DNA of 52,368 bases, taken from Candidatus Omnitrophota bacterium. Lineage in GTDB: Bacteria > Omnitrophota > Gorgyraeia > Zapsychrales > Zapsychraceae. Shown here piece after piece: positions 3,555 through 36,505 of the stretch; the stretch's first letter is position 1; each line of letters opens with the position of its first letter. The notes under the pieces were generated by a model that worked only from the letters and a program-made list of their open reading frames with translations, made no database searches and had not been told where the DNA came from. The position numbers and the translations under genes are program-made. The stretch lies in contig JAKQAH010000165.1 in assembly GCA_029568545.1 (NCBI GenBank), forward strand, positions 1 through 52,368, given 5' to 3'.

Positions 3555-4751
3555 TTGCAAATAATGAAAAAAACCGATTATTTAACATATTGTGAGATCG
3601 ATCTGGAGGCCGTCCGGCATAATGCCCGTCAAATTGCTAAGCTGGTCCAAAAGAACCGCTTTTTTCTTTCCACGCGTTTGGATGCCGAGAAAAAGCTCAA
3701 AGGATTGGAATCGATCCTGGCCGTTATCAAAGCGGATGCTTATGGGCATGGCGTCGAGGACATTGCAAGGCTTCTGGACCGGGAAGGCGTCGGGCTGTTT
3801 GGCATTTCCAATGTTGATGAAGGCATAACTTTACGGAAACTGGGAGTCAAAAAGCCCATTCTTTTGCTTGAAAGCGCCCTGCCCGTCTGCGCGGGCAAGA
3901 TTGTTGATTATGACCTGACGTCGGGCGTGTGCACTTTGGAATTGGCGCGGGCCCTGGATCAAGAAGCGAAAAAGCGCGGTCGGAAAGCCGATGTCCATAT
4001 CAAAATCGATACGGGTATGGGGCGCTTGGGGGTTTGGCACACCGAAGCGTTCGATTTTATCAAGAAAGTCAGCCGGTTACGCCGTTTGCGGATCATGGGG
4101 ATTTTTACTCATTTCCCAGCGGCAGATACGGAACGCGGATTTACAAGAAAGCAAATCGTCTCGCTCTATGACCTAGTTAAAAAACTGGACCGGGCGGGAT
4201 TGATCATTCCCTTCATCCATGCCGCCAACAGCATGGGATTAGCGGGGTATAAAACGCATATTCTGAATCTTGCCCGGCCGGGATTGATGCTTTACGGGCT
4301 TTATCCGGATCCAAGGCTCAAGAAAGATTTTCTCCTGAAGCCCGCCATGAGCGTGCGCTCCCATGTGATCTTTTTAAAAAGGATCCCCAAAGGCCGAAGT
4401 GTCAGTTACGGACGGACATTCTTTACGAAACGGGATATGCTTATCGCGACGGTCCCGATCGGCTACAGCGACGGGTATTTTCGCGCCTTCTCGAACCGCG
4501 CGGCTGTTGTGATCAACGGGGCGCGTTGCCCTGTGATCGGGCGCGTTACGATGGATCAGATCATGGTTGACGTAACGCCTGTGCCGGGAGTCAAGCTCGG
4601 AACATCTGTAACAGTATTAGGGCGGCAAAAAAGACAAACCGTCTCAGCCGAGGATTTGGCGCGATGGGCCGGAACGATCAATTATGAGATTGTTTGCAGT
4701 CTCGGCAGCCGGCTGCCGCGGATCATTAAAAAAGGGAATGAACGGACATGA
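3555..4751 (+). CDS. alr: alanine racemase
   Basis: PLP-lysine motif AVIKADAYGHG. C-terminal YGR...GYSDGY and TINYEIVCSLG motifs. TTG start lies 5 nt after AAGGAG. Confidence 0.9.
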   Translation: MQIMKKTDYLTYCEIDLEAVRHNARQIAKLVQKNRFFLSTRLDAEKKLKGLESILAVIKADAYGHGVEDIARLLDREGVGLFGISNVDEGITLRKLGVKKPILLLESALPVCAGKIVDYDLTSGVCTLELARALDQEAKKRGRKADVHIKIDTGMGRLGVWHTEAFDFIKKVSRLRRLRIMGIFTHFPAADTERGFTRKQIVSLYDLVKKLDRAGLIIPFIHAANSMGLAGYKTHILNLARPGLMLYGLYPDPRLKKDFLLKPAMSVRSHVIFLKRIPKGRSVSYGRTFFTKRDMLIATVPIGYSDGYFRAFSNRAAVVINGARCPVIGRVTMDQIMVDVTPVPGVKLGTSVTVLGRQKRQTVSAEDLARWAGTINYEIVCSLGSRLPRIIKKGNERT

Positions 4752-5357: not shown

Positions 5358-6473
5358 TTAGTTGGAAAAATCCGTTTCGATAATGACCAGCGCGATAAGC
5401 GTGAACAGAAGGGGCGTGGCCCAGGCGGAAAGCAGAGGAGGGAACAAGCCGCCTTTGCCGAACGCCAAAGAGACGGCATTCGCGACATAATAAAGAAACC
5501 CGAGGATCAGGGCCAGCCCGATGGCCAGAAACGCGCTCCCCTTACGGCTGCGGATCATCAAGGCAAAAGGAAGGCCGAGCAAGACAATAACAAAATTCCC
5601 GAATGGATAAGCGATCTTTTGGTGGAGGTCGACCCGCATATTATTGAGGGCTTTGGCGGCTCCGCTTTTGGAAAAGCGCTCAATATAACTCTTCAGCTGC
5701 CGGATGTTCATGGCCGTGACGTTCAGCCGCTGGTTGAGGAAGTCATTGGGGCTTTCCTTGATATCCATCAGTTTTTCTTTATAGACTTTGATCATAAGCG
5801 GCGTGTTGATATCGGTCTCGCTGAATGTCGTGATCTGGCACTGGTAGAATTTCCAGGCGATCCCCGTCCAGACGCCCTTAAGGGCCACGATTTTCTGCCT
5901 TATGTTCTGCTGTTCGTCGTGCTCAATGATGGTCACTCCCAGGATTTCGTTTGTTTCGGCATCGAAAGTGTCGATGAAGTAAAGCCGGTTCTTGAGCCCG
6001 TAAAATGTCAAGTTTTTGATCTTTTCCTGTTTTTTGCGCAGTCGGTCTACGAGCAAAACCATGTTTTCGTTGCGGATTTGTTCGGTGATCTCGGTGGCCC
6101 GGGGAACAAGGCGCTCGTTGACCCAGAACACAAGAATCGAGATGATCAGGCCGAACATGATGGCCGGTTTTGTGATCTGCCAGAAACTTAGCCCGCTGGC
6201 GCGCATGGCGATGACTTCGTTGTTGGTATTGAGATGGCTGAAGGTAAAGAGTACCGCGATCAGGCACGCAACCGATGAGATTGGCTGGCTCAGGATGATC
6301 GGGAAATAGGACATGTAGTATTGGACCAGGATATCGAGGGGGACTTTACGATCAATGAACTCGTCGAGCTGGCTGGTGATATCGATCAGGACGTACAAAA
6401 AAGAGAACGTCAGGATCGTGAAGATGAAGATCGTGACGACGGATCGAGTGATATAGCGGTCTAGAATTCGCAT
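5358..6473 (-). CDS. lptG: LPS export ABC transporter permease LptG (YjgP/YjgQ family)
   Basis: N-terminus ILDRYI, six predicted TM segments around a central periplasmic domain. Second of two tandem overlapping YjgP/YjgQ genes. Confidence 0.8.
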   Translation of the reverse strand: MRILDRYITRSVVTIFIFTILTFSFLYVLIDITSQLDEFIDRKVPLDILVQYYMSYFPIILSQPISSVACLIAVLFTFSHLNTNNEVIAMRASGLSFWQITKPAIMFGLIISILVFWVNERLVPRATEITEQIRNENMVLLVDRLRKKQEKIKNLTFYGLKNRLYFIDTFDAETNEILGVTIIEHDEQQNIRQKIVALKGVWTGIAWKFYQCQITTFSETDINTPLMIKVYKEKLMDIKESPNDFLNQRLNVTAMNIRQLKSYIERFSKSGAAKALNNMRVDLHQKIAYPFGNFVIVLLGLPFALMIRSRKGSAFLAIGLALILGFLYYVANAVSLAFGKGGLFPPLLSAWATPLLFTLIALVIIETDFSN

Positions 6474-13541: not shown

Positions 13542-13935
13542 GGGGGTGACATGGTATCGACTTAAGATGTTGTTGTATAAGGCGCATGCCGAGGACGCCT
13601 GGTAGGCCTCGTAAATCATCTGGGCACAAACAAATGCAAACGATAATATCCTTGCACAAGCCAACGAGATCGTTAACCCGATCTTCGAGGCACAAACAGT
13701 CTTAGCTTAAAACTTAAGCTGAGCCCTTTTGCAGGCCATGCCTGTAGGTTTGCAAAAGGTCCTTAACAGGCTAGCCGCAGCTCCTGCCTGAGGGATTGCG
13801 GCGAATTCATAAGGCTGGTTCCGTCAGATTTTGTTTGTCGAAGCGGGCGGGATGAGACTAAAAGACAAACTAAGCATGTAGGGCCTTATGCGGAACTCTT
13901 CAAGGACGGCGGTTCGATTCCGCCCACCTCCACCA
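13542..13935 (+). ncRNA. ssrA: tmRNA (transfer-messenger RNA)
   Basis: 5' GGGGGTGACATGGTATCGAC and 3' GGACGGCGGTTCGATTCCGCCCACCTCCACCA form the tRNA-Ala-like domain. Internal tag frame GCA AAC GAT AAT ... TTA GCT TAA at 13636-13710 has its stop inside the hairpin AGCTTAA-AAC-TTAAGCT. smpB lies 0.5 kb upstream. Confidence 0.9.
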
Positions 13936-14110
13936 AGATATGAGGACGAGCCCATGGGGGCGAGTCCGAATTTTGGTGGTATTTTGATTTCCATAATTTA
14001 GGAAAAACAAAATGCCACCAAGATGAAAAACGGGCCCATAGAACGAGCCCGAATTTAAGTGGTCATTTGGTTGCCATAAAATCGAATAACCAAGTTGCCA
14101 CGATATAGAC
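13930..14110 (+). repeat. three degenerate direct repeats of about 83-85 bp, each starting with a copy of the ssrA 3' terminus
   Basis: CCACCAAGAT occurs at 13930-13939 (tmRNA 3' end) and 14015-14024; a degenerate copy GCCACGATAT is at 14097-14106. Units 1 and 2 also share the blocks GNGCCCATNG...CGAGNCCGAATTT...GTGGT...CCATAA. Confidence 0.6.
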
Positions 14111-14114
14111 GAAT

Positions 14115-14163
14115 GGGACGAACCCAAATTTGAAAGATTTGGATTCGTCCCATTTTTATTTTT
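14115..14163 (+). terminator. rho-independent terminator
   Basis: GGGACGAA-C-CCAAAT / loop TTGAAAG / ATTTGG-A-TTCGTCCC, followed by ATTTTTATTTTT. Confidence 0.7.
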
Positions 14164-14234: not shown

Positions 14235-14263
14235 TTGACATAAGAAACTCTGTCGTATATATT
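14235..14263 (+). promoter_or_regulatory. sigma70-like promoter upstream of the 455-aa secreted-protein gene
   Basis: TTGACA (14235-14240), 17-nt spacer, TATATT (14258-14263). Confidence 0.45.
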
Positions 14264-14298
14264 TACTATAAAAGAAAGCGCTTTCAAGAATCGTTTCT

Positions 14299-15666
14299 AT
14301 GAAAAGTATATTAATTTCAACCGTTATTATTATATCTGCCACATTCGGGTATGTTGAGGCCCAAGCAGCGCTCAATTTAAGCGTTGCTCCAATGGGGGGC
14401 GGCAACAGCTTGCGGTTCGGACGCATTGTCGGAGATGAAGAAGCTAGCCAAGAAGTCCGTATCCGCATTACTTCGACCGATACTGAGCAATATCAGATTT
14501 ATCAGCGCATGATCGATCCGTTTACTAACGATCGTGGCGTGACATTCAGCCGCGATATTCTCATGGGCTATACGCTGTTAGGTTCGAATGCTTCGGGCAC
14601 GCTCTATGCGCAGGCTCTGGAGCCTATTGGGCCTGCCGATCAGCTTCTTTACAGTTCCTCGCCTAACGGCGACAGCGATAGCTTCACGGTTGCCTATATG
14701 GTCCGCGGCAATGCGGTCACGGACTCGGGCAATTTCCTTGGCCGGCTTCAATACACGGCCAGGCCTGTTGGCGGGGCGGGGCAGGACGATGTCATTCTTA
14801 ATGTCACTTTTGAGGTTTCGGATGACCTCAAAGTTGAGATCAAGGGATCTTCGACGGCAAATACGGTCCGATTGAGGCTCAACGGCGATCAGGAAAGCGC
14901 AGGACATGTGCAGCTCAGTTTCCGTGAGAATCCAGGGCGGACGATTCGTTTCGTTCAGGACGTTCAAGGGCTTCCTCAGAATGCCTCTATGAATGAGATC
15001 CCGTCTGGGATGATTCTATTCGCAACATCGGGCAGCGCCAGCGGCGAGATGTATCCCGGCACCCCGACGCCGTTATCCCGGAGGGCCGAGGAGATCTATA
15101 GTTCGCAGGCTGCCGAAGACACATTCTATGTCCATTTTTTCCTGGATGAGACCATCCTCGAGCGGCAAGAGACGGGTGTTTACGCTGGAAGACTGAATTA
15201 TGCCGTCGAGGCGGGAACAATCCAAGAGCAAACCGTCATTGATCTGGAACTGACGGTTGATCCTGTTTTTGCGCTAAGCGTTGATCTTCCGCCGGATGGT
15301 TTGAGTTTCGAGCGGATCCTTCCGGACAGTCAGCCGGAACTACGCGACGTGAATGTTGCGGTCCGGTCCAATTTGGGGAAGCCCTACATGGTCACCCAGA
15401 GCGTTATTTCGCCTTTGACCAATGCGTCTGGCGACCAAATCCCAGCGGAATATTTTACGGTGAAGGTCGTTTTGCTTGAGGGGGAATCCGGCAAGAGCGG
15501 ATTCGGCGATTTTCAGCCCGTGCCCATCGAAGACCATCCGGTCTTCAGCTCGGATGCCTCAGGGACGCCTAGCCGTTTCAAAGTTGTTTACCGCCTTCGG
15601 CCGTTCAAGGAAATGGCCCCGGGCAGCTATGCAACGGCTGTACGGTTTTCCCTCGGGGAGATATAA
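14299..15666 (+). CDS. secreted protein with three tandem pilin-like (Ig-like beta-sandwich) domains, hypothetical
   Basis: Signal peptide ending VEA|QA. Three modules of about 145 aa start LNLSVAP..LRFGRIV, LKVEIKG..VRLRLNG and FALSVDLPPDGLSFERIL. They end GNFLGRLQYTARP, GVYAGRLNYAVEA and GSYATAVRFSLGE. That terminal G-x-Y-x-G-x-L-x-Y strand resembles the last strand of SCPU/DUF4402-type fimbrial subunits. Confidence 0.5.
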   Translation: MKSILISTVIIISATFGYVEAQAALNLSVAPMGGGNSLRFGRIVGDEEASQEVRIRITSTDTEQYQIYQRMIDPFTNDRGVTFSRDILMGYTLLGSNASGTLYAQALEPIGPADQLLYSSSPNGDSDSFTVAYMVRGNAVTDSGNFLGRLQYTARPVGGAGQDDVILNVTFEVSDDLKVEIKGSSTANTVRLRLNGDQESAGHVQLSFRENPGRTIRFVQDVQGLPQNASMNEIPSGMILFATSGSASGEMYPGTPTPLSRRAEEIYSSQAAEDTFYVHFFLDETILERQETGVYAGRLNYAVEAGTIQEQTVIDLELTVDPVFALSVDLPPDGLSFERILPDSQPELRDVNVAVRSNLGKPYMVTQSVISPLTNASGDQIPAEYFTVKVVLLEGESGKSGFGDFQPVPIEDHPVFSSDASGTPSRFKVVYRLRPFKEMAPGSYATAVRFSLGEI

Positions 15667-15726
15667 GTACAGGCAGTTTTAGGAATATAATAGGAAAAGC
15701 ATGCATTAACGAAAAGGAGGAAGAAG

Positions 15727-16362
15727 ATGAAAAAACAATGGTTAATTGTTGCTGCGACAGTGGCCTATGCGCTGATCATGGTTTCAGCCGGGTTCGCGCA
15801 AACTGTGCCAACGGAAGTCAGCTTTCCGATCACGGCGTATCTGCCGGCAGCGACGGGAGTCTCGATCGTCGCGACCAGAGTGGATGCTGACACGGACGAA
15901 TTTCTGAATACCGTGACGGCATTCAACTTTGGCACGCTCAGTCCCGTTAACGGCGTTTATCTGTCGGATTATTACTTTGCCGTTGACGTAGGGGTAACCA
16001 ATGGGGCTGGATCGACGAACATCACGCTGACCTATGAGGAAGGCCTGCCGCTGATCGAGGGCAATTCCCTCGGCTATAAGACAACAGCGGCCTTCTTTAC
16101 GATTAAGGGAGGGCCAGATCCGGAGGATCAGGTTCAAGAACCCATTTCGACGAGTGTGGGGACCAAGTCTCTTTTGATCGATCTCGAGGATCCGGGTGTC
16201 GATATCACGCCGGACGACCTGGATGGAGGGTTTTTCAGGGCTTATATCGGTATTTATCCGGGAGGGGATACAAGTCTTCCAAATGGAAAACCGTTTACGG
16301 CGGCTGATCAGGGCGGAACCACCTATAACGGCACCTTGATCGTTTCGGCGACTGTGGCATGA
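15727..16362 (+). CDS. secreted pilin-like protein, hypothetical
   Basis: Strong RBS AAAGGAGG and signal peptide ending GFA|QT. Single beta-rich domain ending TTYNGTLIVSATVA, the same terminal-strand pattern as the upstream gene. Confidence 0.5.
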   Translation: MKKQWLIVAATVAYALIMVSAGFAQTVPTEVSFPITAYLPAATGVSIVATRVDADTDEFLNTVTAFNFGTLSPVNGVYLSDYYFAVDVGVTNGAGSTNITLTYEEGLPLIEGNSLGYKTTAAFFTIKGGPDPEDQVQEPISTSVGTKSLLIDLEDPGVDITPDDLDGGFFRAYIGIYPGGDTSLPNGKPFTAADQGGTTYNGTLIVSATVA

Positions 16363-17174
16363 GCAAACGCAAAAAAATTCTGGGTATAGTCGTTGCTGTT
16401 GGAGCGATTCTCTGCGCTTGTGTTCCTGCGTGGGCCCAAGTGCTTTTGGAAGAAGGCAAAATCAGGACCAACGTCACTCCCGGTGAGAACATCACCGGGA
16501 AAGTGACGGTCCACAATACTTCCGATGCTCCCGTGAGCATGAAAGTTTATTGGGAGGATTTTGCCTACAAATCTCCTTATGACGGCTCCAAGGAATTCTT
16601 GCCCAAGGGAACGACGGACCATTCGCTGGCTAGCTGGGTGAATGTTCCGGTCAGCGTTCTCGATTTGCCTCCTTTTTCCAAAAAAGATGTTGCCTACATG
16701 GCCAATGTTCCCGAGGATTTGGACCGGGGGCATTATGGCGTGCTATTTTTTGAGAAGGCGAACGAGTCCCAATCGCCGGAGATGGGGATGAATATCATTT
16801 CCCGCGCCGGATGTTTGTTTTTCATCGAGCCTAAAAACAAGATCAAGCGGATCCGTCTGGACAATTTCCGTTTTACGGGAAAAGAATTGGCGGTAGATCT
16901 TACCAATCAGGGGAATGTCATCATTATTCCCAACGGCACATTTTATGTGATCGACCAGGAAGGGATGGTCTACGACCGAGGGGAGATCAAAAAGGTCTAT
17001 CTGCCGCCTGATAAGACGGCAGATTATATACTGACGTTCAATGCGGACATGGATCCCGGAACGTACACTCTTGTTATGACCCTGGATCTGGATGATAACG
17101 ACGTTGCCGTTAGGGAGATCGATTTCAGGAAAAGTTATCCGTCTGATTATACTGTTTTAACCGTAAGAGAATAA
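16359..17174 (+). CDS. periplasmic chaperone-like two-domain beta-sandwich protein, hypothetical
   Basis: Overlaps the upstream gene by ATGA. Signal peptide ends AWA|QV. GENITGKVTVHNTSDAPVSMKVYWEDF...HYGVLFFE resembles the first Ig-like domain of PapD-like/DUF916-type proteins. Confidence 0.4.
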   Translation: MSKRKKILGIVVAVGAILCACVPAWAQVLLEEGKIRTNVTPGENITGKVTVHNTSDAPVSMKVYWEDFAYKSPYDGSKEFLPKGTTDHSLASWVNVPVSVLDLPPFSKKDVAYMANVPEDLDRGHYGVLFFEKANESQSPEMGMNIISRAGCLFFIEPKNKIKRIRLDNFRFTGKELAVDLTNQGNVIIIPNGTFYVIDQEGMVYDRGEIKKVYLPPDKTADYILTFNADMDPGTYTLVMTLDLDDNDVAVREIDFRKSYPSDYTVLTVRE

Positions 17175-17220
17175 TCTGTGCCCAGAGTATTTCATTCTAT
17201 CGTGGAGAGTATAGCCTACG

Positions 17221-20073
17221 TTGAACAAGTGTATCCTCATATCCTTGGCCATTCTTCTTGTCGCAGGGGTTTTTCCCGCGTCCGCCGAGCCGGACTATCC
17301 TAATATTTACAAGTTTTACATGGAGCTTGGAAAATTCGCCATTCAGCAAGGCGATTATCAGGAGGCGTATGCCAATTTCCAGCATGCCCTTGCGGTAGCG
17401 CCGCGCGAAAGAGAGCCGGTTTTTTTCATCAATTTGATCAAGCGCATGCAGGACCAGCGCATCGAGCCGGAGCCGGATACGCAAATTACCGCCCCATCAG
17501 GCAAAAGCCGGGCTCAGATCATCGAAGAGTCACTTGATGCGTTTGAGCCTCTGCCAACAAAACATAAAATTCCCATGCCGGCTCCTGTCACGCGATTTTC
17601 TGATAGGATCACTGCCGAATGCCAATCCATAGAAGAAAAGAAGCCCCCTTCTGTCAAAACGGGTCCCGTTCGCCGGCAGACTTTTGAGCCGGAAGAAACG
17701 CTGATGAGCCCGGGGAAAGAAACGGTTTTTCTGGATGAAGCGCTTTGGAACACCCAGCCCGGCACGCTTATCCGCATCGAGATGAGGTCCTCTGTTCAAT
17801 TGGAGGGCCGGAACATCGAGCGTTATTTGATCATTACTCCAGGCGTGTTTGAGGTTGAGCGTATCGATGGCCACCGTTTGAAAATCATCGGGAAAAAACG
17901 CGGTTCGAGTTTTCTTCATGTGTGGGACGAAAAGGGCCGCTGGACATTCAATATCGAGGTGATTATCCCCATGCCTTCCGCGTCTCTGCGTCTGCGCGAG
18001 GCCTTCGACGAGCTTCAAGCCGATCCGTTTAAGGTCACCTACGCGGCCGACTGGGGATCGTATTACCGGGGCCCGACGTTCGCGGATGCCGAGCGGGAAA
18101 GCCTGAAGTTTCTTCAACGGGTCATGATGGAAGGCGAGACGCCATATGGCGATCTGGACAGTCATGTTGTTTTTAACAAATTTCAGGAATCAACAGAGGT
18201 TACGGGTTATGGGATCGGCCTGACGGACGGGAAAATCGGCGATTTCAAAGATTTCAGTATTCGCGGATTTGACTTGAGAAAAACTTTTTCTCCGCTTTCG
18301 ATGCCCGGACAATATGTGCGCGGAGTATTGTTTGAGGCGATGGCTTTTGACCAGAACTTGGCCTACTCGTATATCCACGGGAGGGACCGCCAGATTTACA
18401 GCTACCTATCGGCCGATGTTTTGGACAGCAAGGAATCGTTTATTGAAGGAGCGCGGGCTACACTGTTCCCGAAAGAAGAGAACCAGTATTCGCTTAACTA
18501 TGCGCGCGGTTACGGTGATGCGCGCGAAGCTTTCCTCAAGGACCAGGTCATGTCATTTGAGGCGCAGCGCAGGATCAAGGATGTGCTCCTGTCGGGGGAG
18601 GTTGGCTATGACGAGGAGGCGACGGCGGTCACATCGCAGATGCTTTACAATAAAGAAGATCACCGGGTCACGGTCAGTTTCCGGGATATCGATGAGGACT
18701 ACACGACGATTGCGAGCTACCCGTCCCGGCGCGGCGAAGTTGGCGGCTCAATTCTCTGGAACTGGAAGCTGGGAGATGTTGATATCGATACTTACTTGGA
18801 CCTGTACCGCGAGCGGCTTCAGCCCAATCCTGACGCAACGGGAACGATGAACGTCGATTTTAACAGCCGGGTCGATGTTCCGCTATCGGCGAGCGACCAA
18901 GTGAGCGCGTCCGTTTATTACAATGATACGTCAGGGGAGCTTTCCCCACGCAATAGCGTCCGTGTCAACACGCGCTATACCAAGCGGTTTCCGTTCTTTA
19001 GCGGGCGGGATTTCACGGCTTTTATCGGAGCGACCCAACAGCGCAGCCGGTTCGCCCGGGCGACTTCCTCTGACAGCGACAGATATTCGTTGATGACGGG
19101 GATATCTGTTCCTTTGGGGGCGCGACTGAATTATTATGCGAATTATGAATTTTCCTGGCTCTATGATCATGAGATCGGCGATCTGACCGGGCCCAATGTG
19201 CTTAACACGGGCTTAAATTATTCGCGGCAGCTCGTAGACGGATGGTCCATGTACACGGGATTTAATTACCGTGATGAAGAGAATACGGGCGGGACCAATA
19301 GTTTCCTTGCCGGTGAGGATAGTATCACCGGAAGCATCGGCACGAGCTTCCGGCCGAGTGAGGACTTTGAGCTTTTTATTGACGGAAGGGCCCGCAATAT
19401 CTGGGGGCAAGAAGAGGACCGCGCCTCGTTTAACGAATATGACGTCAACGTCGGGGTTCGCACATCATGGGAAACGCCGTTCCGCTGGAACCCGAAAGGC
19501 ACGGTCAAGGGCATTGTGTATAAAGACTTGAACGGGAACCAAAGGCAGGATGAAGAAGAAACTGGCATTCCGGATGTCCGTGTCCAGGTGGGGGAAAAAG
19601 CTGCTATAACGAATGCCTTGGGGATTTACCGCGCAACGGTCAGGGGCAAAGCTGCCGAAGTGACGCTGGACATGAGCACTATTCCGGATGGTTTTGTTTT
19701 TTCCACGCCCGTCATGGAGACGGTCACGATCATTCCGCATAAAACGCATCGCGTGGACTTCGGGCTGACGACGCAATCAGGCATTTACGGGATCGTCTTT
19801 TATGACCAGAATGGAGATGGCAAGCCGGACGATGGAGATGAATTTATCTCCAAAGCGCGCGTTGTTCTCGATGGGGAAAAAACAGCGTTCAGCGATTTTG
19901 AGGGCGCGTATTTCTTTGAGAATGTTCTTCCGGGAGAGCACGAGATCGCCATTGAAATGAATTCCTTGCCAATCACATATTTGCCTAAGGTTAAGCTGAA
20001 GAACACGATTATCACGTCGGAAGGCTCAACCTACGTGTTCCATATTCCGCTGGATAAAACCAAGAAAGAGTAA
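17221..20073 (+). CDS. large outer-membrane protein: TPR-like N-terminus, secretin-N/pilus-N-like domain, predicted beta-barrel, two SdrD-B-like C-terminal domains
   Basis: TTG start with signal peptide ending ASA|EP. SVQLEGRNIERYLIITPGVFEVERIDGHRLKIIGKKRGSSFLHVWDEKGR matches the T2SS/T3SS pilus-N (CpaC-N) pattern. About 550 aa follow with alternating Y/F/G-rich amphipathic strands. Then two repeats GIVYKDLNGNQRQDEEE..G and GIVFYDQNGDGKPDDGD..GAYFFENVLPGEHEI (SdrD B-like). Confidence 0.55.
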   Translation: MNKCILISLAILLVAGVFPASAEPDYPNIYKFYMELGKFAIQQGDYQEAYANFQHALAVAPREREPVFFINLIKRMQDQRIEPEPDTQITAPSGKSRAQIIEESLDAFEPLPTKHKIPMPAPVTRFSDRITAECQSIEEKKPPSVKTGPVRRQTFEPEETLMSPGKETVFLDEALWNTQPGTLIRIEMRSSVQLEGRNIERYLIITPGVFEVERIDGHRLKIIGKKRGSSFLHVWDEKGRWTFNIEVIIPMPSASLRLREAFDELQADPFKVTYAADWGSYYRGPTFADAERESLKFLQRVMMEGETPYGDLDSHVVFNKFQESTEVTGYGIGLTDGKIGDFKDFSIRGFDLRKTFSPLSMPGQYVRGVLFEAMAFDQNLAYSYIHGRDRQIYSYLSADVLDSKESFIEGARATLFPKEENQYSLNYARGYGDAREAFLKDQVMSFEAQRRIKDVLLSGEVGYDEEATAVTSQMLYNKEDHRVTVSFRDIDEDYTTIASYPSRRGEVGGSILWNWKLGDVDIDTYLDLYRERLQPNPDATGTMNVDFNSRVDVPLSASDQVSASVYYNDTSGELSPRNSVRVNTRYTKRFPFFSGRDFTAFIGATQQRSRFARATSSDSDRYSLMTGISVPLGARLNYYANYEFSWLYDHEIGDLTGPNVLNTGLNYSRQLVDGWSMYTGFNYRDEENTGGTNSFLAGEDSITGSIGTSFRPSEDFELFIDGRARNIWGQEEDRASFNEYDVNVGVRTSWETPFRWNPKGTVKGIVYKDLNGNQRQDEEETGIPDVRVQVGEKAAITNALGIYRATVRGKAAEVTLDMSTIPDGFVFSTPVMETVTIIPHKTHRVDFGLTTQSGIYGIVFYDQNGDGKPDDGDEFISKARVVLDGEKTAFSDFEGAYFFENVLPGEHEIAIEMNSLPITYLPKVKLKNTIITSEGSTYVFHIPLDKTKKE

Positions 20074-20085
20074 GTGGCAAGGGAG

Positions 20086-20343
20086 CTACCGGATAACAGT
20101 TGTCTGCACCAGGAAGGCCCGATTATCGGCGGTGTACATGACAGTTTCCGTGGTCTGCCACTGGGCCGTTTCGGCCGGCATTTGCTCCGCTTGCCGGACA
20201 GGTGCTGACGGGATGTCCGTCATTTGAACCGAAGCCGGCATGGTGACCGTGATCTTGTAGGCTTTGGTCATGCTCCTGGCCGCTAGGGCGGGAGTAGCGC
20301 AGAATACCAAGAGTAGTGCTAGGGTAAGAAATCGTTTAGCCAT
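20086..20343 (-). CDS. small secreted protein, hypothetical
   Basis: 85 aa with signal peptide ending ALA|AR and RBS GAGGA upstream. Convergent with the outer-membrane protein gene, only 12 nt away. Confidence 0.5.
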   Translation of the reverse strand: MAKRFLTLALLLVFCATPALAARSMTKAYKITVTMPASVQMTDIPSAPVRQAEQMPAETAQWQTTETVMYTADNRAFLVQTTVIR

Positions 20344-20448: not shown

Positions 20449-20534
20449 GCAACGGCAGCTGACGGCCATATTCCGGCGTTCCGGAACACAGGCTCTAAAG
20501 CTTTGTGTCCTGCCCTTTCGGGAAGTTTACCTTT
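20449..20534 (-). promoter_or_regulatory. candidate c-di-GMP-I (GEMM-I)-like riboswitch aptamer
   Basis: Minus-strand RNA reads AAAGGUAAAC-UUCCC-GAAA-GGGCA-GGACACAAAGC-UUUAGAGCC... The GEMM-I core as I recall it is GGCAAAC..stem-GAAA-stem..GGGACGCAAAGCC. An 11-bp hairpin CCUGUGUUCCGG-AACG-CCGGAAUAUGG follows, then CAGCUGCCG. I ran no covariance-model scan. Confidence 0.35.
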
Positions 20535-20572
20535 ATTCTTCTTAAAGAACGATTTTCTTTCTCCCTTGGGAA

Positions 20573-20597: not shown

Positions 20598-20675
20598 ACA
20601 AATTTCAACCCTTCCCGGTCTTTCCCTTTCATAAATACAATGCCCTGCCTGGAAGCTTTTATTGCCCAGGTCCCA

Positions 20676-22670
20676 TCAGGGACGTTTTTTTTGCTCTATA
20701 TCTTCGATCATTTTCTCAAGGGCGGTATTTTTTCTGTCTCCAAACCTGGCTGCATGGTATTGGCCGATGAAAGATTCGATTTTTCCTATCGTCTCGGAAG
20801 GGATTTTCGGTTGTGTTTTTAAGCGGTCGACGACTTCTCGGTCTGTTTCGGATGGTTTTCGGGCTTCCCGGAAAGCATTCTTAAGATATTGCTCATAACG
20901 CTGATAGATAAGTCGGACAGGATCTTTCTTGGCGCTTGTCGGCAATGCTTGTTTCTTTGCTGTGACAAGCAAGCGGTGGATTCCCGCGAATATTTTCTTC
21001 GCATTGATCAAGAGCATGATCATGATCAAGACATACAACATGTCCGTTTTTAATTTGTTTTTATCCAGGTTTTCCAGATAGACGCTCAAGCGCAAGATGC
21101 TCAGCCAGATATTTTCGGCGATCTTCGAGAGGTCGATGCGGATCGTTCGGATTGTTTCCCGGCGCTCGCCGGCGGGTGTGGGATCCATGACCTTCCATCG
21201 CTTGCGCGATAATCCGGATTTCGGGTCGATGTCCGTCAGAAGAACCTCGACCCAGGCGTGGGCATCATAGACGCGGGCCAGGAAGATGTTTTTTCTTGCA
21301 TGGATCTTCTCATTAACAAGAAATCCCGCTGCGACGCGGGCGGGAATATCCTGGGAGCGCAGCAACAGGGCCAAAGCGGTGGCGAAATAGGTGCAATAAG
21401 CGGGGCGTTTTTCCAGGATCATCTGGATGAGGCCTTCATGATCCGCTCTAAAGTCAACATCCAGCGAATATTGGAAATGATTGAGGAAATATTGATTAAG
21501 CCGGTCAGCTTTCTCGGAATCGTCTGAGGCGGATTCAACGATAGAAGAGGATATTTCGTGTAAAACGCTGGCGATATCGGCAGGAAGGGAGATGCATTTT
21601 TTAAGTTGGCTTGAAGATAATTCGACGGAGGCGTTTTCAGGAATAAGGGCAAATTCCACGATGCGGGTCCGCTGGTCGTCTTCGGCATAAATAATGCCGT
21701 AATCGCTTTTTGTCAGGGGCATTTTACTTTTTGCCGCCGCAAGACCGTAAGGGGAAGGAACGATATTTTCAAAAGAAACGAACATAGCCATTTCTGCCGT
21801 CTGAGCTTTGTTCATGAACTTATCGGGGAACGGGAATTTGGCAATTTCTTCCTCTTCGCTCCAGGCCCCCTGATCAAAATCCTCAAAGACCTGGGTCTTT
21901 AAATATGTTCCCTGATCGGAAGGCAGCTTGATTTCCAGGACGGGCCTTTTGTCCCGGGCGCTTGAGCCGGGCGGGACAAGTTTCATGAACCGGTTGATGC
22001 TCAAGAAATGGGTATAACTCCGGGGCATGACATAATCGCCTATCAGGCGCATGAACACCTCATCCATAATCACGATGGACCGGGATATCCCGTAAAACAA
22101 TCCTGTTGTCAGCCCGACGATCAAGATGGAAAAGAAGATAAAATCGCGATAATGACGGGATCTGTGTTTAGGCTCCGGGGGCCTGTTCATGGTTTGAAGG
22201 ATCACGACAGCGACGGCAATCACGCAGAATGCGCAAAAAGCGAAGAGCATCGAATCCGTGAACGGAACATTGCTGGAAACAGCGACGGTCAGCCAAGCCA
22301 GGAAAAAAAGGTGATGGGCGTTTTTCATTGAAAAAGGCTTCAGCCAGATGATCGCGCTGGCAAAGATAGCCCCGGATTGCAGAGCGGCCGTGAAGGTCGG
22401 AAAAGGGGAAACCGCGTCTTCCGGCGGCGGATAGATATTGCGCCACAGCAGGCCGGCGATGAAAGAAACAATGATAATGGCGGACAGAGGAATGCGCCCA
22501 AAGAAAGCGAATTGCCGGTCGCTGGTTTTTACGCGCATGAGAAGAGAAAAAACGATGATCGCGCCTATTGCATAAGGGAGAACGGTTTCATTTTGGCATT
22601 GGCTATAGACTGTCCAGGAGGAAAAAAGCAAAAGGAAGATGTTCAGATACGTTTTGATCATTGGACGCAA
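20676..22670 (-). CDS. transglutaminase-like membrane protein (multi-TM N-terminus, TGase core, DUF4129-like C-terminus)
   Basis: N-terminal hydrophobic helices. Core RPAYCTYFATALALLLRSQDIPARVAAGF...YDAHAWVEVLL carries the Cys/His/Asp context. An additional TM segment and a YHAARFG tail follow. Confidence 0.8.
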   Translation of the reverse strand: MRPMIKTYLNIFLLLFSSWTVYSQCQNETVLPYAIGAIIVFSLLMRVKTSDRQFAFFGRIPLSAIIIVSFIAGLLWRNIYPPPEDAVSPFPTFTAALQSGAIFASAIIWLKPFSMKNAHHLFFLAWLTVAVSSNVPFTDSMLFAFCAFCVIAVAVVILQTMNRPPEPKHRSRHYRDFIFFSILIVGLTTGLFYGISRSIVIMDEVFMRLIGDYVMPRSYTHFLSINRFMKLVPPGSSARDKRPVLEIKLPSDQGTYLKTQVFEDFDQGAWSEEEEIAKFPFPDKFMNKAQTAEMAMFVSFENIVPSPYGLAAAKSKMPLTKSDYGIIYAEDDQRTRIVEFALIPENASVELSSSQLKKCISLPADIASVLHEISSSIVESASDDSEKADRLNQYFLNHFQYSLDVDFRADHEGLIQMILEKRPAYCTYFATALALLLRSQDIPARVAAGFLVNEKIHARKNIFLARVYDAHAWVEVLLTDIDPKSGLSRKRWKVMDPTPAGERRETIRTIRIDLSKIAENIWLSILRLSVYLENLDKNKLKTDMLYVLIMIMLLINAKKIFAGIHRLLVTAKKQALPTSAKKDPVRLIYQRYEQYLKNAFREARKPSETDREVVDRLKTQPKIPSETIGKIESFIGQYHAARFGDRKNTALEKMIEDIEQKKRP

Positions 22671-23902
22671 GCCGCTTCCTTGGTTTTAAGAATAGAAATT
22701 TCTTGGCCGGTTTGCGGCCATGTCGTCGGCCGGTCCCGGATAATAATAACGCGGACCTTGAGCCCGGATTCTCTTAACTGTTGAATGAAGTGCGCGCGCG
22801 GTTGATCCCAATCTTTAAGGAAAACAACGAGGGCGGACAGCTCTCGGGAGAACCGTTTCAGCAGGGCCAAAGCATCGGTAAAATCGACCTTCGCATCGCC
22901 TTCCGGAGCGGAAAGGAAGTCCAGCAGATGGTCGAAGGATTCCAGCCCCCGGCCGGACTGCATGTGCTGATGGTGAGGATCGCTCAAAAATAGGTCCACG
23001 ATATAGTTATTGGCGCAGAGCATGTCCGCGATGCCGGCGCACAGAGAAATGCGGCTTTCGAAGCACGTGTGCTTCTCGAAACGCTTCAATTCCGTATCGA
23101 CAAATAAACCGATCCGCACAAAATACTCTTCGACGTATTCCTTGACGATCAACCGTCCCGTTCTGGCGGACGATGCCCAATGCACGTCACGCATCCGGTC
23201 GCCGTGGCGGTATTCGCGCGTGCTCGCAAATTCATTGGAATCTCCGATCTTGGAACTTAAAGAAATGCCCCCGGGCTGGAATTGCTTGACCGTATCGATC
23301 TGAAAATCTGTTTGCCGTGTAAATTTCGGATAGACGACAAGGCGTTCCTTTCTGCCTAAGCGCTTTCGGGAACGCATGATCCCCGAGGGAAAACTGCTTC
23401 CGGCGATCAGGCGGGAGAGTTCAAAAGTTCCCCGCCGGGGTGTGCGCAGAACAAGCGTGAGGGTAGTTTGTTCTCCTGGATCCAGCCAACTGATCGTGTT
23501 GTTGAATTCCGGATGGTTGACAGCGGAATATAAACCGTAAGGCAGGGCGGACTCAAAGACCGAAAGATTGCGGACGATTCTCCGGCCGGTATTCTTGACG
23601 ATGACCGGATAAATGCAATGGCCGCCGGCTTTAACGGCGGATGGTAAAATGCGCCGAGCTTCGATATGCGGCCGGAAAAAGAGCGACAGAAAATAGGAAA
23701 CCATTAACAAGGCGAGGATAAAGCTGGGAAGGAAATAGGCGGAGATATGGGTGCCGACCGAAGCGATCGCCATGCCCGCAAGAATGATCAGAAAAATAAT
23801 ATTTCCCCAGGCAGTGAGCCGGGATTGGCAATACGCCAAGAACCATTTGACCTGCTGATGGTCCTCAGCCGGCAGAAGAAAGGACCATTCAACTCTGGGC
23901 AT
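22658..23902 (-). CDS. DUF58 domain-containing protein
   Basis: Two N-terminal TM segments. Signature REYRHGDRMRDVHWASSARTGRLIVKEY. Overlaps both neighbouring genes. Confidence 0.85.
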   Translation of the reverse strand: MPRVEWSFLLPAEDHQQVKWFLAYCQSRLTAWGNIIFLIILAGMAIASVGTHISAYFLPSFILALLMVSYFLSLFFRPHIEARRILPSAVKAGGHCIYPVIVKNTGRRIVRNLSVFESALPYGLYSAVNHPEFNNTISWLDPGEQTTLTLVLRTPRRGTFELSRLIAGSSFPSGIMRSRKRLGRKERLVVYPKFTRQTDFQIDTVKQFQPGGISLSSKIGDSNEFASTREYRHGDRMRDVHWASSARTGRLIVKEYVEEYFVRIGLFVDTELKRFEKHTCFESRISLCAGIADMLCANNYIVDLFLSDPHHQHMQSGRGLESFDHLLDFLSAPEGDAKVDFTDALALLKRFSRELSALVVFLKDWDQPRAHFIQQLRESGLKVRVIIIRDRPTTWPQTGQEISILKTKEAACVQ

Positions 23903-24873
23903 TAGCGGGGAACTCTCTCGCGCTCAAGGATCTCTTGGATGATATGTGATGATGACAAGCCGCTATACTGGGCTTTCGTGTTTAAGATCATTCGGTGCGA
24001 CATAACCGGAATGGCAAGTTTCTTGATATCTTCCGGGATGACATAATCACGGCCCTCTAAAATGGCCAAGGCGCGGGCGATGCGCGCATAGAGAAGCGTC
24101 CCGCGCGTCGAAACGCCGAGGCGGACATGCGGATGATTGCGTGTTGCCATGACGATCTGCAGGAGATACTCGCTAATGGACGGCTCTATTTTTACATGAT
24201 CCACGCTTTCTCTCAAAGTATTCAATTCGTCCAGGGAAGCCACGGTCTTGATCGTGTCCACGGGGTCCTGGCTTGAACGGTTGATGGCCAAGGACTGCTC
24301 GATTTGTAAGGGCGGGTAGCCCAGATCGATCTGCATCATAAATCGGTCCAGTTGGGCTTCGGGTAAGGGATAGGTGCCGTGATATTCCACGGGATTCTGG
24401 GTCGCTAAGACGATGAACGGTTTGGGCAGCGGATGCGTTTCTCCGTCGATGGTCACGTGCTCTTCGCTCATGGCTTCCAGGAGCGCGGATTGGGTCCGCG
24501 CGGAAGCCCGGTTGATCTCATCAGCCAGAAGGATATTGGAGAACACGGGGCCGCTTTTAAAAGTGAATTTCCCCAGCGATTGCTGGTAAACGTTGATGCC
24601 TGTGATATCTGTCGGCAAAAGGTCCGGGGTGAACTGGATGCGGGAAAATTTTCCATCGATGGATTTGGCTAAGCTCCGCGCGAGGGTTGTTTTTCCGACG
24701 CCGGGGATGTCTTCAATGAGGATATGCCCTCCGGCCACCAGGGCCAAGACCAAAAGCTCGATCCTGTCTTCTTTCCCTTGAATGACTCGACTGAGATTCG
24801 CGATGATCGCCCGCATCTGGGCGTTGGCGGGCGAAAGGGGTAAGTTCATAGCTGGAAATCCTTTTTCTGTCAT
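23902..24873 (-). CDS. MoxR-family AAA+ ATPase
   Basis: Walker A GVGKTTLARSLA and Walker B ILLADEINRA. ATQNPVEYHGTYPLPEAQLDRF is diagnostic for MoxR. Confidence 0.9.
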   Translation of the reverse strand: MTEKGFPAMNLPLSPANAQMRAIIANLSRVIQGKEDRIELLVLALVAGGHILIEDIPGVGKTTLARSLAKSIDGKFSRIQFTPDLLPTDITGINVYQQSLGKFTFKSGPVFSNILLADEINRASARTQSALLEAMSEEHVTIDGETHPLPKPFIVLATQNPVEYHGTYPLPEAQLDRFMMQIDLGYPPLQIEQSLAINRSSQDPVDTIKTVASLDELNTLRESVDHVKIEPSISEYLLQIVMATRNHPHVRLGVSTRGTLLYARIARALAILEGRDYVIPEDIKKLAIPVMSHRMILNTKAQYSGLSSSHIIQEILERERVPR

Positions 24874-35029: not shown

Positions 35030-36505
35030 ATGTCGAGAATTTTTCCTAATGATTCCGCACGTAACGACAAAGGTCCGGAGTTGAAGAGCTCCGACCTTGC
35101 CTTTCTCCAATCCGACAAAGCTGAAGAAGATTTCCGCAAGCTTTACCGGTTCAGCCAGACGCTGATCAACACGATCCCCTATGGTATCGGCGTTGTCGAC
35201 GAGCATGGGAACATCTTGTATTTAAGCGATCGATTGGCATCGATGTTCAAGGAAAAGGCGATTGGAAAGAAATGCTGGGATTTGTATCGCGATAATAAGG
35301 AACAGTGCGCTTATTGCCCGTTGCGAAAAAACATTGAAGTCGGTGAGACGCGGACCATAGAATCTTCGGGTGTTTTCGGAGGGCGGATCTTCCAGATCAC
35401 GCATACAGGGATGATCTTTGATGGGAAAAAGGCCGTCCTTGAAGTCTATCACGATATTACTGAGCAGAAAAAGAACCAAGAGATCATCGGGGCTCTCGCG
35501 AGGAATTTGAGGGCCGAAAAGCGCAAACTGGAAAAAGTGTTAGGCATCGATCTGCGCATGCGCTCGATCCGCAAGCTCAACGACCTGGTTGACTTTATCG
35601 TGGAAAAATCCACGGAAATATTGGAGGCGGAAAAATGCTCTCTCATGCTTTTGGACCCCGATGCCAACGAATTGTCGATCCGCGGGGCCAAGGGCCTGGA
35701 CGACGAGATCATCAGACGATCGCGGGTCAAAGTCGGCACTTCCATCGCCGGCATGGTGGCTGAAGAAAATTGCCCGATCCTTGTCCGGGATATTGAGTCC
35801 AATGTCCGTTTTTCCCGGCAGAACCGCCCATCCTATCAAACCAAATCGTTTATGAGCGCCCCGATCAAGGTCCATAATAGGGTGATCGGCGTGGTCAATC
35901 TGGCCGACAAGCGATCGGACCAGGAACAGGTCTTCTCCGAGACGGACCTGAACATCCTCTGCACGATTGTCCATCTGGCTTCTGTCGCTATTGAGAACGC
36001 TGACTTTGTTCAGCAATTGACCCATCTTTCCATGACGGATCCCCTGACGGGCATCTACAATCATCGCTACTTTGTGGCCAGCCTCGACCGGGAAATCCAT
36101 CGGGCCAACCGCTATGGCAAGCCTCTGTGCCTGTTTATGATCGATGTCGATAATTTTAAGACCTATAACGATGCGTACGGACATCTTGAAGGGGACTATT
36201 TGCTTAAAACCGTTGCGGGTATTCTTAAATCCAATTTGCGTGTTGTGGATATTGTCTGCCGCTATGCCGGGGATGAATTTGTCGTTATTCTGCCGGAGAC
36301 AGACAGTGCAGAAGCGGTGACCGCCGCGGAAAAGATCAAAAAAGCTATAGAACATGCGATATTAAAGCAGAAAGTCACGATCAGTATTGGCATTGCCCAA
36401 TATGCCAGCCCCAACATGAACAAATATGACTTTATCCTTAAAGCGGATACGGCATTGTTCCAAGCCAAGAAACAGGGGAAGAACGCGATTCGCTCCTTCC
36501 GTTAA
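35030..36505 (+). CDS. PAS-GAF-GGDEF diguanylate cyclase
   Basis: PAS-like N-terminus, GAF region (LEAEKCSLMLLD...VNLADK). GGDEF domain with active-site RYAGDEFVVILP and an upstream RxxD-like inhibitory-site context. Confidence 0.85.
   Translation: MSRIFPNDSARNDKGPELKSSDLAFLQSDKAEEDFRKLYRFSQTLINTIPYGIGVVDEHGNILYLSDRLASMFKEKAIGKKCWDLYRDNKEQCAYCPLRKNIEVGETRTIESSGVFGGRIFQITHTGMIFDGKKAVLEVYHDITEQKKNQEIIGALARNLRAEKRKLEKVLGIDLRMRSIRKLNDLVDFIVEKSTEILEAEKCSLMLLDPDANELSIRGAKGLDDEIIRRSRVKVGTSIAGMVAEENCPILVRDIESNVRFSRQNRPSYQTKSFMSAPIKVHNRVIGVVNLADKRSDQEQVFSETDLNILCTIVHLASVAIENADFVQQLTHLSMTDPLTGIYNHRYFVASLDREIHRANRYGKPLCLFMIDVDNFKTYNDAYGHLEGDYLLKTVAGILKSNLRVVDIVCRYAGDEFVVILPETDSAEAVTAAEKIKKAIEHAILKQKVTISIGIAQYASPNMNKYDFILKADTALFQAKKQGKNAIRSFR

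Follow-up and report, generated by a model that had tools for sequence, protein, structure and literature searches.

A divergent chaperone-usher-type locus with a riboswitch-linked mini-protein proposed in Omnitrophota

Introduction

Whether a group of secreted proteins without family names can constitute a machinery for the assembly of a surface fibre is the question raised by a gene cluster of a Candidatus Omnitrophota bacterium (GTDB lineage Bacteria; Omnitrophota; Gorgyraeia; Zapsychrales; Zapsychraceae). The stretch of DNA analysed, here termed the window, comprises positions 1 to 52,368 of contig JAKQAH010000165.1 (assembly GCA_029568545.1, forward strand), and an initial annotation, made from the letters alone, had singled out positions 14235-20343 as a locus in which the succession of subunit, subunit, chaperone-like protein and outer-membrane pore follows the logic of chaperone-usher pili. 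Chaperone-usher pili have been described mainly in Proteobacteria, with few other phyla represented. The predicted fold of the third gene product, the synteny of the cassette and the predicted layout of the pore bear out that logic, and with a fifth gene placed behind a cyclic di-GMP (c-di-GMP) riboswitch we regard the locus as a divergent five-part chaperone-usher-type system that would build a surface fibre or coat in diderm Omnitrophota, a reading to which we assign a probability of roughly 0.6. Full-text searches of the literature on Omnitrophota in combination with usher, PapD or pili retrieved no description of this cassette, and two phylum-wide genome surveys, in which the attachment tools presented are type IV pili, Tad pili and giant adhesins, do not mention it.

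Organisation and conservation of the cassette

Four co-directional genes, here designated g1 to g4, occupy positions 14299 to 20073 of the plus strand. The first, g1 (14299-15666), encodes a secreted protein of 455 amino acids made up of three modules of ~145 amino acids and represents a candidate tip or adaptor subunit, while g2 (15727-16362) specifies a secreted protein of 211 amino acids, the candidate polymerising (shaft) subunit. These are followed by g3 (16359-17174; 271 amino acids), whose product is a periplasmic, chaperone-like protein with a predicted PapD/WxLIP fold, and by g4 (17221-20073; 950 amino acids, TTG start), which encodes a predicted usher-like pore of the outer membrane. 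As the initial annotation had described, each of the four products starts with a signal peptide, which as read from the sequence is of the n-h-c type and ends in A-x-A; AlphaFold models place N-terminal helices at residues 3-19 of g3 and 2-17 of g4. The reported ATGA overlap of g2 and g3 is likewise seen in the gene coordinates. A candidate sigma-70-like promoter of the four genes (TTGACA-17-TATATT, 14235-14263, plus strand), a pattern match that agrees with the consensus at 11 of 12 positions, is located 36 nt 5' of the g1 ATG. The fifth gene, g5 (20086-20343, minus strand), is convergent with g4 at a gap of 13 nt and encodes a secreted mini-protein of 85 amino acids; its open reading frame (ORF) lies within the range singled out initially, though the accompanying text gave no description of it.

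With one genome taken per GTDB species, a pattern scan yielded 74 related loci, and BLAST of the window proteins against the ORFs of these loci retrieved g1, g2, g3 and g4 in 68, 70, 74 and 70 of them, respectively, the absences being explained by loci that reach contig ends. The order g1-g2-g3-g4 and the common strand are kept in nearly all loci, with the best g2 match lying elsewhere in a few, so that the four genes, for which the initial annotation had proposed a check of gene-neighbourhood conservation, are co-conserved in order. No conservation of the flanking genes around the cassette was found across the related loci. Most loci bear the label Omnitrophota; ~20 are labelled uncultured Planctomycetales, and single loci carry the labels 'uncultured bacterium', Candidatus Elulimicrobium and Methanosarcinales (the latter on one short contig). 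We suspect that the labels other than Omnitrophota reflect binning or labelling problems. All homologues of g3 and g4 for which a source is named are labelled Candidatus Omnitrophota or Omnitrophica, or hydrothermal vent metagenome. The cassette is widespread in Omnitrophota rather than an accessory locus. In public records its proteins are listed as hypothetical or as 'pilus assembly protein N-terminal domain-containing', and a few g3 homologues bear the JGI name 'P pilus assembly chaperone PapD'.

The chaperone-like protein g3

An AlphaFold2 model of g3, built on 35 homologues (pLDDT 93, pTM 0.81), comprises two all-beta (beta-sandwich) domains and closes in a beta strand, with no C-terminal membrane helix. 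Foldseek comparison of this model with the PDB returned three WxLIP chains of Enterococcus faecium as the top matches (E 2e-11), next CfaA (E 3e-9), and then YadV, FimC, PapD, Caf1M, DraB, SafB and CsuC at 1e-8 to 1e-6, these named chaperones having TM-scores of ~0.53-0.63 by target. More than 30 chains of pilus chaperones were matched, and the TM-scores of g3 were modest, at 0.41-0.51 when normalised to the query and 0.46-0.63 when normalised to the target. The predicted g3 accordingly displays the PapD-type fold of two Ig-like domains, and both the model and the ranking of its matches agree with the original description of a two-domain protein that is PapD-like or of the DUF916 type.

The sequence of g3 gave fainter indications. 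Pfam reported WxLIP_PGBD (E 0.04) and WxLIP_HBD (E 0.26) below threshold, with the domains in the right order, and weak matches to these families were present in 14 and 6 of the 35 homologues, respectively. PapD_N and PapD_C (PF00345 and PF02753) were not matched by g3 itself, nor by any of the 35 homologues at E<=1 among the matches listed (25 of 31 families). Neither the g3 sequence nor its family profile produced a significant match to a pilus chaperone in the PDB, the best match of the profile being the chaperone EcpB at E 0.39. Comparison of profiles by hhalign with six Escherichia coli chaperones was weak (9.8% over 119 collinear columns; 6.7-9.8% for the chaperone comparisons). PapD anchors the C-terminus of its subunit by a conserved basic pair in the cleft, R8 and K112. 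In the weak hhalign alignment the near-invariant K34 of the g3 family falls on R8 of the chaperones, and the g3 segment IISRAGCLFFIEP falls, one register off, on 'IISRIKLFYRP' of FimC, in which 'IISR' stands two residues before K112; K34 and the invariant R149 are thereby placed at or near R8 and the K112 region of FimC. We interpret g3 as a soluble protein of the periplasm with a PapD/WxLIP fold, for which homology to pilus chaperones is no more than plausible.

The prominence of WxLIP among these matches, both in Foldseek and in the weak but correctly ordered Pfam matches, lends itself to a different reading of the locus, namely a non-polymeric surface complex of the WxL/WxLIP kind in which g3 would hold g1 and g2 on the cell surface and g4 would act as an export or anchoring pore, without donor-strand polymerisation. 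In monoderm bacteria a C-terminal membrane helix serves as the anchor of WxLIP proteins (PMC10599100), whereas g3 closes in a beta strand. WxL loci, moreover, hold no counterpart of the usher-like outer-membrane protein, and the candidate subunits bear on this reading as well, as detailed below.

The usher-like pore g4

The product of g4 was modelled by AlphaFold2 on 51 homologues (pLDDT 83, and >90 across most of the barrel; pTM 0.58). The model shows three helices at residues 27-77, a disordered segment at 84-165, a beta domain at 167-248, ~26 strands across 271-751 and two beta-sandwich domains at 759-950. In the DSSP string short connections of 2-6 residues, taken as periplasmic turns, alternate with longer ones of 4-16 residues, taken as outer loops, an alternation typical of a transmembrane barrel whose two ends both lie on the periplasmic side and in keeping with the long barrel first suggested for residues ~250-760. 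Pfam identified two SdrD_B stretches (43.6 bits, cut-off 29.7), corresponding to the two beta-sandwich domains, and T2SS-T3SS_pil_N (PF13629) at residues 184-247 (27.2 bits, cut-off 23), within the beta domain, as anticipated by the initial annotation in its SdrD-B-like and secretin-N/pilus-N domains. The TPR-like N-terminus that it also described fared less evenly, since the TPR match remains below the Pfam cut-off, although the model has three helices there.

Foldseek comparison of the g4 model with the PDB placed FimD or PapC at each of ranks 1 to 13 (E 1e-19 to 4e-10), namely 12 full-length usher chains (E 1e-19 to 3e-14, with 765-846 aligned columns) and a PapC pore (4e-10). The predicted protein has the layout of an usher, i.e. 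a barrel preceded by a periplasmic N-terminal domain and followed by two C-terminal beta-sandwiches. At the sequence level, however, no relationship to ushers was evident: searches of the PDB with the g4 sequence and its family profile returned TPR and SdrD_B domain matches only, Pfam Usher (PF00577), PapC_N and PapC_C gave no match to g4, hhalign against five E. coli ushers and five archaic ushers gave 0.2% and 1.6%, neither of them significant, and a profile search of the g4 family against 1.84 billion representatives produced no bridge to ushers among the matches listed (150). More than 100 of these 150 were near full-length relatives, the counts being swamped by SdrD_B and TPR repeats. Members of the usher family (PF00577) possess a 24-strand barrel in which a plug domain interrupts the succession of strands 6 and 7, and in g4 such a plug seems, from the model, to be absent. 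g4 therefore has the layout of an usher, yet by sequence it stands outside the usher family, and the initial statement that the pore is not of the FimD/PapC type holds for its sequence only, as by structure its 13 best matches are FimD and PapC.

The class next after the ushers in the Foldseek search consisted of TonB-dependent receptors and MtrB (E 1e-9 to 1e-7), and the N-terminal beta domain of g4 stands directly before the barrel, with no plug inserted between strands. Both features would suit an uptake or export channel, either similar to a TonB receptor with an N-terminal plug or a 26-strand barrel similar to LptD or MtrB, with g1 to g3 binding its substrate and the locus serving transport rather than fibre assembly. 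We consider this very unlikely: the full-length ushers are ahead of the other classes by 5-10 orders of magnitude and align over nearly their whole length, no Pfam Plug or TonB_dep_Rec match was obtained in g4, the two C-terminal periplasmic beta-sandwiches are a trait of ushers, and a transport role would account neither for the partner of PapD fold nor for the pilin-like termini of g1 and g2. Nor was g4 assigned to an unrelated porin family, an outcome that the initial annotation had named as one that would speak against its interpretation.

The candidate subunits g1 and g2

The internal triplication reported for g1 was confirmed against shuffled sequences, with z values of 16.7 for modules 1 and 3, 6.4 for modules 1 and 2 and 3.4 for modules 2 and 3. 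The mature N-terminus of g1, 'AAxLSVxPxxGxNSLRFGR' across 61 homologues, enters the first strand of a module immediately. Modules 1 and 2 each contain a G-x-[FY]-x-G-x-x-x-[FY] strand followed by a short loop and a conserved extra strand (VILNVTFEV and TVIDLELTV, respectively), whereas module 3 carries no extra strand, its G-x-Y strand being followed by the C-terminus after 3-4 residues. In g2 the mature N-terminus reads 'tFtVSAtVPxATGvsI' (68 homologues), that is a strand and then a P-x-A-T-G hinge, and the C-terminus reads 'PFTNADxxGTYTGTLTVSATVx' (68 homologues) and stops right after the strand. The C-terminal strand motifs noted at the outset are hence present in both proteins and conserved in 61-68 homologues, with the C-termini of g1 and g2 located 1-4 residues past the strand. 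That both proteins end directly after a G-x-Y-x-G-x-h-x-h strand suggests that each includes an incomplete beta-sandwich in need of a strand from elsewhere. By analogy with archaic pili, polymerisation would fall to g2 and the tip position to g1.

No Pfam or PDB match was obtained for g1 or for g2, whether single sequences or family profiles were used, and NCBIfam returned no match above threshold for members of the two families. Pfam and NCBIfam searches of all family members of the cassette returned WxLIP and fn3_5 below cut-off and no pilin, chaperone or usher family. The NCBIfam model CPR_Pam_pilin_C (NF058581) matched 9 of 45 g1 homologues at the ends of modules 1 and 2 with E 5e-4 to ~0.1, the top bit scores among the matches listed being 19.2 and 18.1 as compared to a cut-off of 55 bits. 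Five archaic chaperone-usher operons from plasmids served as a comparison set, and their SCPU pilins read 'STFTVSATIENGC...FGTIDFG...AGTYTDTVTVTLTY', to which the termini of g2 are alike at both ends. SCPU (PF05229) was matched by none of 49 g2 homologues at E<=5. A homology of g2 to SCPU pilins by hhalign (60.8%) was discarded, as it was caused by the signal peptides and fell to 0.8% once these were trimmed; in the hhalign comparisons of g2 with g1 and of g3 with g1, too, signal peptides alone were aligned.

With regard to the WxL-like complex considered above, three g1 homologues weakly match WxLIP_PGBD, a further point in its favour. Tryptophan is absent from g1 and from mature g2, which leaves neither with a WxL motif, and the stop of both subunits right after the G-x-Y strand is a hallmark of pilins. 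Together with the missing membrane helix and the usher-like pore, these features make a non-polymeric complex of this kind clearly unlikely, and we retain the chaperone-usher-type reading.

The mini-protein g5

A g5-like ORF was found behind the riboswitch in ~50 loci, of which BLAST recovers only six because the ORF is too divergent. NCBI calls g5 a gene, under the name 'hypothetical'. All of these ORFs share one design, i.e. a signal peptide, the motif '[ST]x[FY]K[VIL]SVTIP', a variable linker and a C-terminal 'RNNxxVxhxThVVx', with a median of 54 residues from the motif to the end and a mature protein of ~55-60 residues. The N-terminal motif agrees with that of g2 at each position (F/Y, V/I/L, S, V/A, T, I/V, P), and hhalign of mature g5 with mature g2 gave 35% (E 4e-4), in register, as compared to 0.2-1.6% for controls. 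Retention of the frame, the signal peptide and the two motifs across ~50 divergent loci argues for selection on the protein. g5 may thus be regarded as part of the conserved module and as a candidate subunit consisting of a donor strand only, i.e. a cap or an anchor; as for g1 and g2, its fold is deduced from motifs in the sequence.

In most loci g4 and g5 are convergent with a gap of -28 to +25 nt; the 3' ends are either 1-25 nt apart or overlap by 3-28 nt (20073 and 20086 in the window, and in the loci L023, L010, L028, L018, L066 and L048). No consistent pattern of a conserved terminator, either between g4 and g5 or beyond the riboswitch, was seen across loci, and a crude scan of the final 400 nt of g4 detected a terminator on the minus strand in only 19 of 56 loci. 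The two transcripts therefore probably overlap. This arrangement could be taken to mean that the riboswitch unit acts mainly as RNA, with minus-strand transcription running antisense into the 3' end of g4 and tuning the operon while the g5 peptide is secondary; the close convergent ends and the lack of a consistent terminator would fit such a role. The conservation of g5 as a protein speaks against it and we give it a very small chance, noting that RNA and protein mechanisms can coexist. On the preferred reading g5 is a secreted component of the cassette.

The riboswitch preceding g5

The c-di-GMP-I (GEMM-I) riboswitch aptamer preceding g5 is located at 20451-20541 on the minus strand and was identified by Rfam RF01051 with 65.1 bits (gathering score 35), the full-length model being matched. 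The initial annotation had referred to a neighbouring c-di-GMP-riboswitch-like leader; the element is genuine, but it lies outside the range given for the locus and precedes g5, and as it is on the opposite strand and drives the convergent g5 it is not a leader of g1 to g4. Among 9 related loci, 7 carry a c-di-GMP-I aptamer that passes in Rfam and has the corresponding position and strand, and a covariance model of our own, built from eight aptamer copies, detected 58 loci with the aptamer, in every case a few hundred bases beyond g4 and on the minus strand. Where at least 700 nt of sequence follow g4, and the locus can hence be evaluated, the aptamer is present in 57 of 62 cases; two of the remaining five have a g5-like ORF, including the one which carries the c-di-GMP-I-GGC variant (RF03167, 61.5 bits) at the same position (L051, 5458-5558). 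A further locus, L009, has two riboswitch copies downstream of g4 (4184-4297 and 5468-5580), the nearer of which is followed by a g5-like ORF. The pairing of a riboswitch and a secreted mini-protein beside such a cassette has no description in the literature searched.

Between the aptamer and the g5 start a terminator scan revealed the expression platform, a terminator-like hairpin followed by U7 (20393-20363, minus strand). The P2 segment of the aptamer and this hairpin are complementary (-27.5 kcal/mol, z -4.4), and the 5' arm of the hairpin also pairs with the Shine-Dalgarno region of g5. For the transcript up to the U-tract the unconstrained minimum free energy structure (-69.7 kcal/mol) contains the duplex of P2 with the terminator arm and is thus antiterminated, as compared to -60.4 kcal/mol when the terminator is enforced. 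Complementarity of P2 to the downstream repressive hairpin reached z<=-3 in 22 of 40 loci. Two types of platform occur across loci, a terminator or a hairpin in which the Shine-Dalgarno sequence and the start codon are sequestered, and in either type P2 pairs with the 5' arm of the repressive hairpin. This suggests an OFF switch, in which the ligand would lock the aptamer, the repressive hairpin would form and g5 would not be made.

Neighbouring genes and other features of the window

The ssrA gene for transfer-messenger RNA (tmRNA) is located at 13542-13935, 364 nt upstream of g1. The adjacency noted in the initial annotation is therefore real, while the accessory nature of the locus that it was held to indicate is not borne out: of 60 related loci only 1 has a tmRNA gene close to the cassette, making the adjacency incidental, and together with the unconserved flanking genes this count ruled out an ssrA-island. 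The tmRNA specifies an unusually long tag of 24 residues, ANDNILAQANEIVNPIFEAQTVLA, and that of the related locus L004 a tag of 32 residues. Directly 3' of ssrA, at 13930-14154, there are ~2.5 tandem copies of a unit of ~84 nt; copies 1 and 2 open with CCACCAAGAT, i.e. the CCA end of the tmRNA and four bases, and the series closes with a strong hairpin at 14112-14154 and a T-run. A weak Rfam match to 'tmRNA_permuted' covers 13908-13963. These repeats may have been left by an integration event at ssrA, or may form a structured trailer of the tmRNA.

Fifteen kb from the riboswitch, at 35030-36505 on the plus strand, the window encodes a PAS-GAF-GGDEF diguanylate cyclase (GGDEF E 1e-44), and the genome therefore makes c-di-GMP. 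An operon for a MoxR AAA ATPase, a DUF58 protein and a TgpA-like transglutaminase (20676-24873, minus strand) ends just upstream of the promoter region of the g5 riboswitch. Read-through from the g1-g4 operon could be stopped by a plus-strand hairpin with T8 (20670-20691), in which case the 3' tail of the operon would be antisense to g5 and the riboswitch. The ORF at 38260-41892 (plus strand, 1210 amino acids) matched no Pfam family at E<=1e-5.

Immediately 5' of g1, on the same strand and at a median distance of 88 nt, 11 related loci contain a conserved ORF of ~550 amino acids (for example L060, 3993-5657) which by eye shows a serine-protease motif of the trypsin/DegP kind. In Pap systems DegP removes misfolded pilins, and this ORF may represent a lineage-specific sixth partner. 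In a close relative an Rfam group II intron domain match (L002, 165-236; 42.5 bits, gathering score 40) is situated just 5' of g1.

Discussion

The proteins of the cassette allow a working scheme to be formulated for the assembly of a fibre. The Sec system would export g1 and g2, after which g3 would hold the subunits and hand them to g4. At g4 the N-terminal strand of an incoming g2 would displace the strand provided by the chaperone, complete the previous subunit and thereby allow the chain to be threaded outward. With two self-completed modules, one open module and no extra N-terminal strand, g1 would be suited to the tip. g5 possesses an N-terminal strand of the g2 type and no body that could accept a further strand, and might therefore end the chain, either as a cap or as an anchor to g4. 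c-di-GMP has a general role in attachment, and because the g5 platform resembles an OFF switch, high c-di-GMP would switch g5 off, remove the cap and favour growth of the fibre. The capping function of g5 is a tentative part of this scheme, and we hold it to be rather doubtful.

Several observations weigh against a chaperone-usher-type assignment of the locus. No sequence link to any chaperone-usher family passes threshold (no PapD_N/C, Usher, Fimbrial or SCPU match), the hhalign values for usher and chaperone comparisons are confined to 0.2-9.8%, and the one high value, that of g2 with SCPU, was lost on removal of the signal peptides. It is WxLIP and no pilus chaperone that forms the best structural match of g3. 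The Foldseek TM-scores of g4 are low (0.25-0.42), as would be expected of a multi-domain model with a pTM of 0.58, and large barrels generically match one another; the predicted g4 moreover has no inserted plug and ~26 strands, as counted from the DSSP string, instead of 24. The 'FxVSxTxP' motif shared by the starts of g2 and g5 also opens module 3 of g1 ('FALSVDLP') and could hence be an ordinary first strand that is not donated. The direction of the riboswitch, finally, is taken from predicted RNA folds.

A bolder proposal, which is possible though in our judgement rather unlikely as a whole, is that the cassette constitutes a third, deep-branching form of donor-strand-exchange pilus next to the Proteobacterial chaperone-usher pili and the CPR Pam pili, widespread in the ultra-small and possibly host-dependent Omnitrophota, with its length or attachment set by a c-di-GMP-repressed g5 that consists of just a donor strand and a short tail and caps the chain at a plug-less 26-strand usher. 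Should this hold, a second messenger would act directly on the termination of a polymer by way of a riboswitch, a form of pilus control for which no precedent was found in the literature searched. On the chaperone-usher-type reading itself, the reach of this mode of assembly would extend to an uncultured nanobacterial phylum, with likeness at the level of the fold only, and the cassette would be a second independent example, after the Pam pili considered below, of divergence in donor-strand assembly. The cassette is a candidate for attachment to hosts or surfaces in Omnitrophota, and a plug-less usher and a riboswitch-gated mini-subunit raise the questions of how the pore is gated and how growth of the fibre is stopped.

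Among known systems, the archaic (sigma-type) pili, such as Csu of Acinetobacter baumannii, CupE of Pseudomonas aeruginosa and those with SCPU-domain pilins, provide the closest parallel in operon logic, comprising subunits, a two-Ig chaperone and an usher. Archaic pilins have a strand of the type '(A)GxYxDTh-x-V-T-h' directly at the C-terminus, as do g1 and g2, and start with a strand of the type 'TFxVSATh', the donor strand in CupE1 and CsuA/B, to which the start of g2 is alike. In CupE1 the donor strand is an N-terminal strand of 13 residues connected to the core by a short G-A-G hinge, and the CupE tip adhesin has two Ig-like folds of which the C-terminal one is open (PMC10104325). A tip adhesin of several Ig-like folds with the last one open is also what is proposed here for g1. 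Production of archaic pili is linked to c-di-GMP, and a riboswitch would provide such a link in the present case. In contrast to archaic pili, Pfam shows no SCPU, PapD or Usher match, profile-profile comparison yields nothing significant, the disulfide conserved among SCPU pilins is missing, the predicted pore is plug-less with ~26 strands and carries TPR-like helices, a PF13629 N-terminal domain and SdrD_B-type C-terminal domains, the multi-domain subunit gene is first rather than last, and a riboswitch-controlled mini-subunit is added. By analogy, the system would work like archaic chaperone-usher pili and shares motifs with them, while no sequence-based test places it among them.

The Fim and Pap systems are resembled in structure, as g3 matches the FimC/PapD/Caf1M fold and g4 finds its best matches among PDB chains in full-length FimD and PapC, and also in the coupling of subunit and chaperone genes. 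Differences from Fim and Pap are that the sequence families are not shared, that the TM-scores are modest and that the g4 model has no plug domain. Their terminators (FimI and PapH) are full-size pilins, whereas mature g5 is a mini-protein. A more distant parallel is offered by the Pam pili of the Candidate Phyla Radiation, a deep-branching donor-strand-exchange system of recent discovery, with chaperones of PapD/FimC fold and multi-domain pilins, in which the linker strand between domains supplies the donor and a truncated C-terminal Ig domain serves as acceptor (bioRxiv 10.64898/2026.03.03.709456). Pam chaperones are membrane-anchored and, the host being monoderm, the system has no outer-membrane component, in contrast to the soluble chaperone and usher-like barrel predicted here, and the CPR_Pam_pilin_C matches of g1 homologues all remain far below the cut-off. 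WxLIP (DUF916-DUF3324) of Firmicutes provides the best structural match of g3, from which the present locus is set apart by the missing C-terminal membrane helix of g3, by the absence of WxL partners and by a diderm context with an outer-membrane pore. As for regulation, c-di-GMP-I riboswitches upstream of pilus or adhesin genes similarly control a secreted component of a surface structure; here its control is confined to a small accessory subunit, whose gene lies tail-to-tail with the operon for assembly, and does not extend to that operon itself, and the logic of its platform suggests that c-di-GMP represses that subunit.

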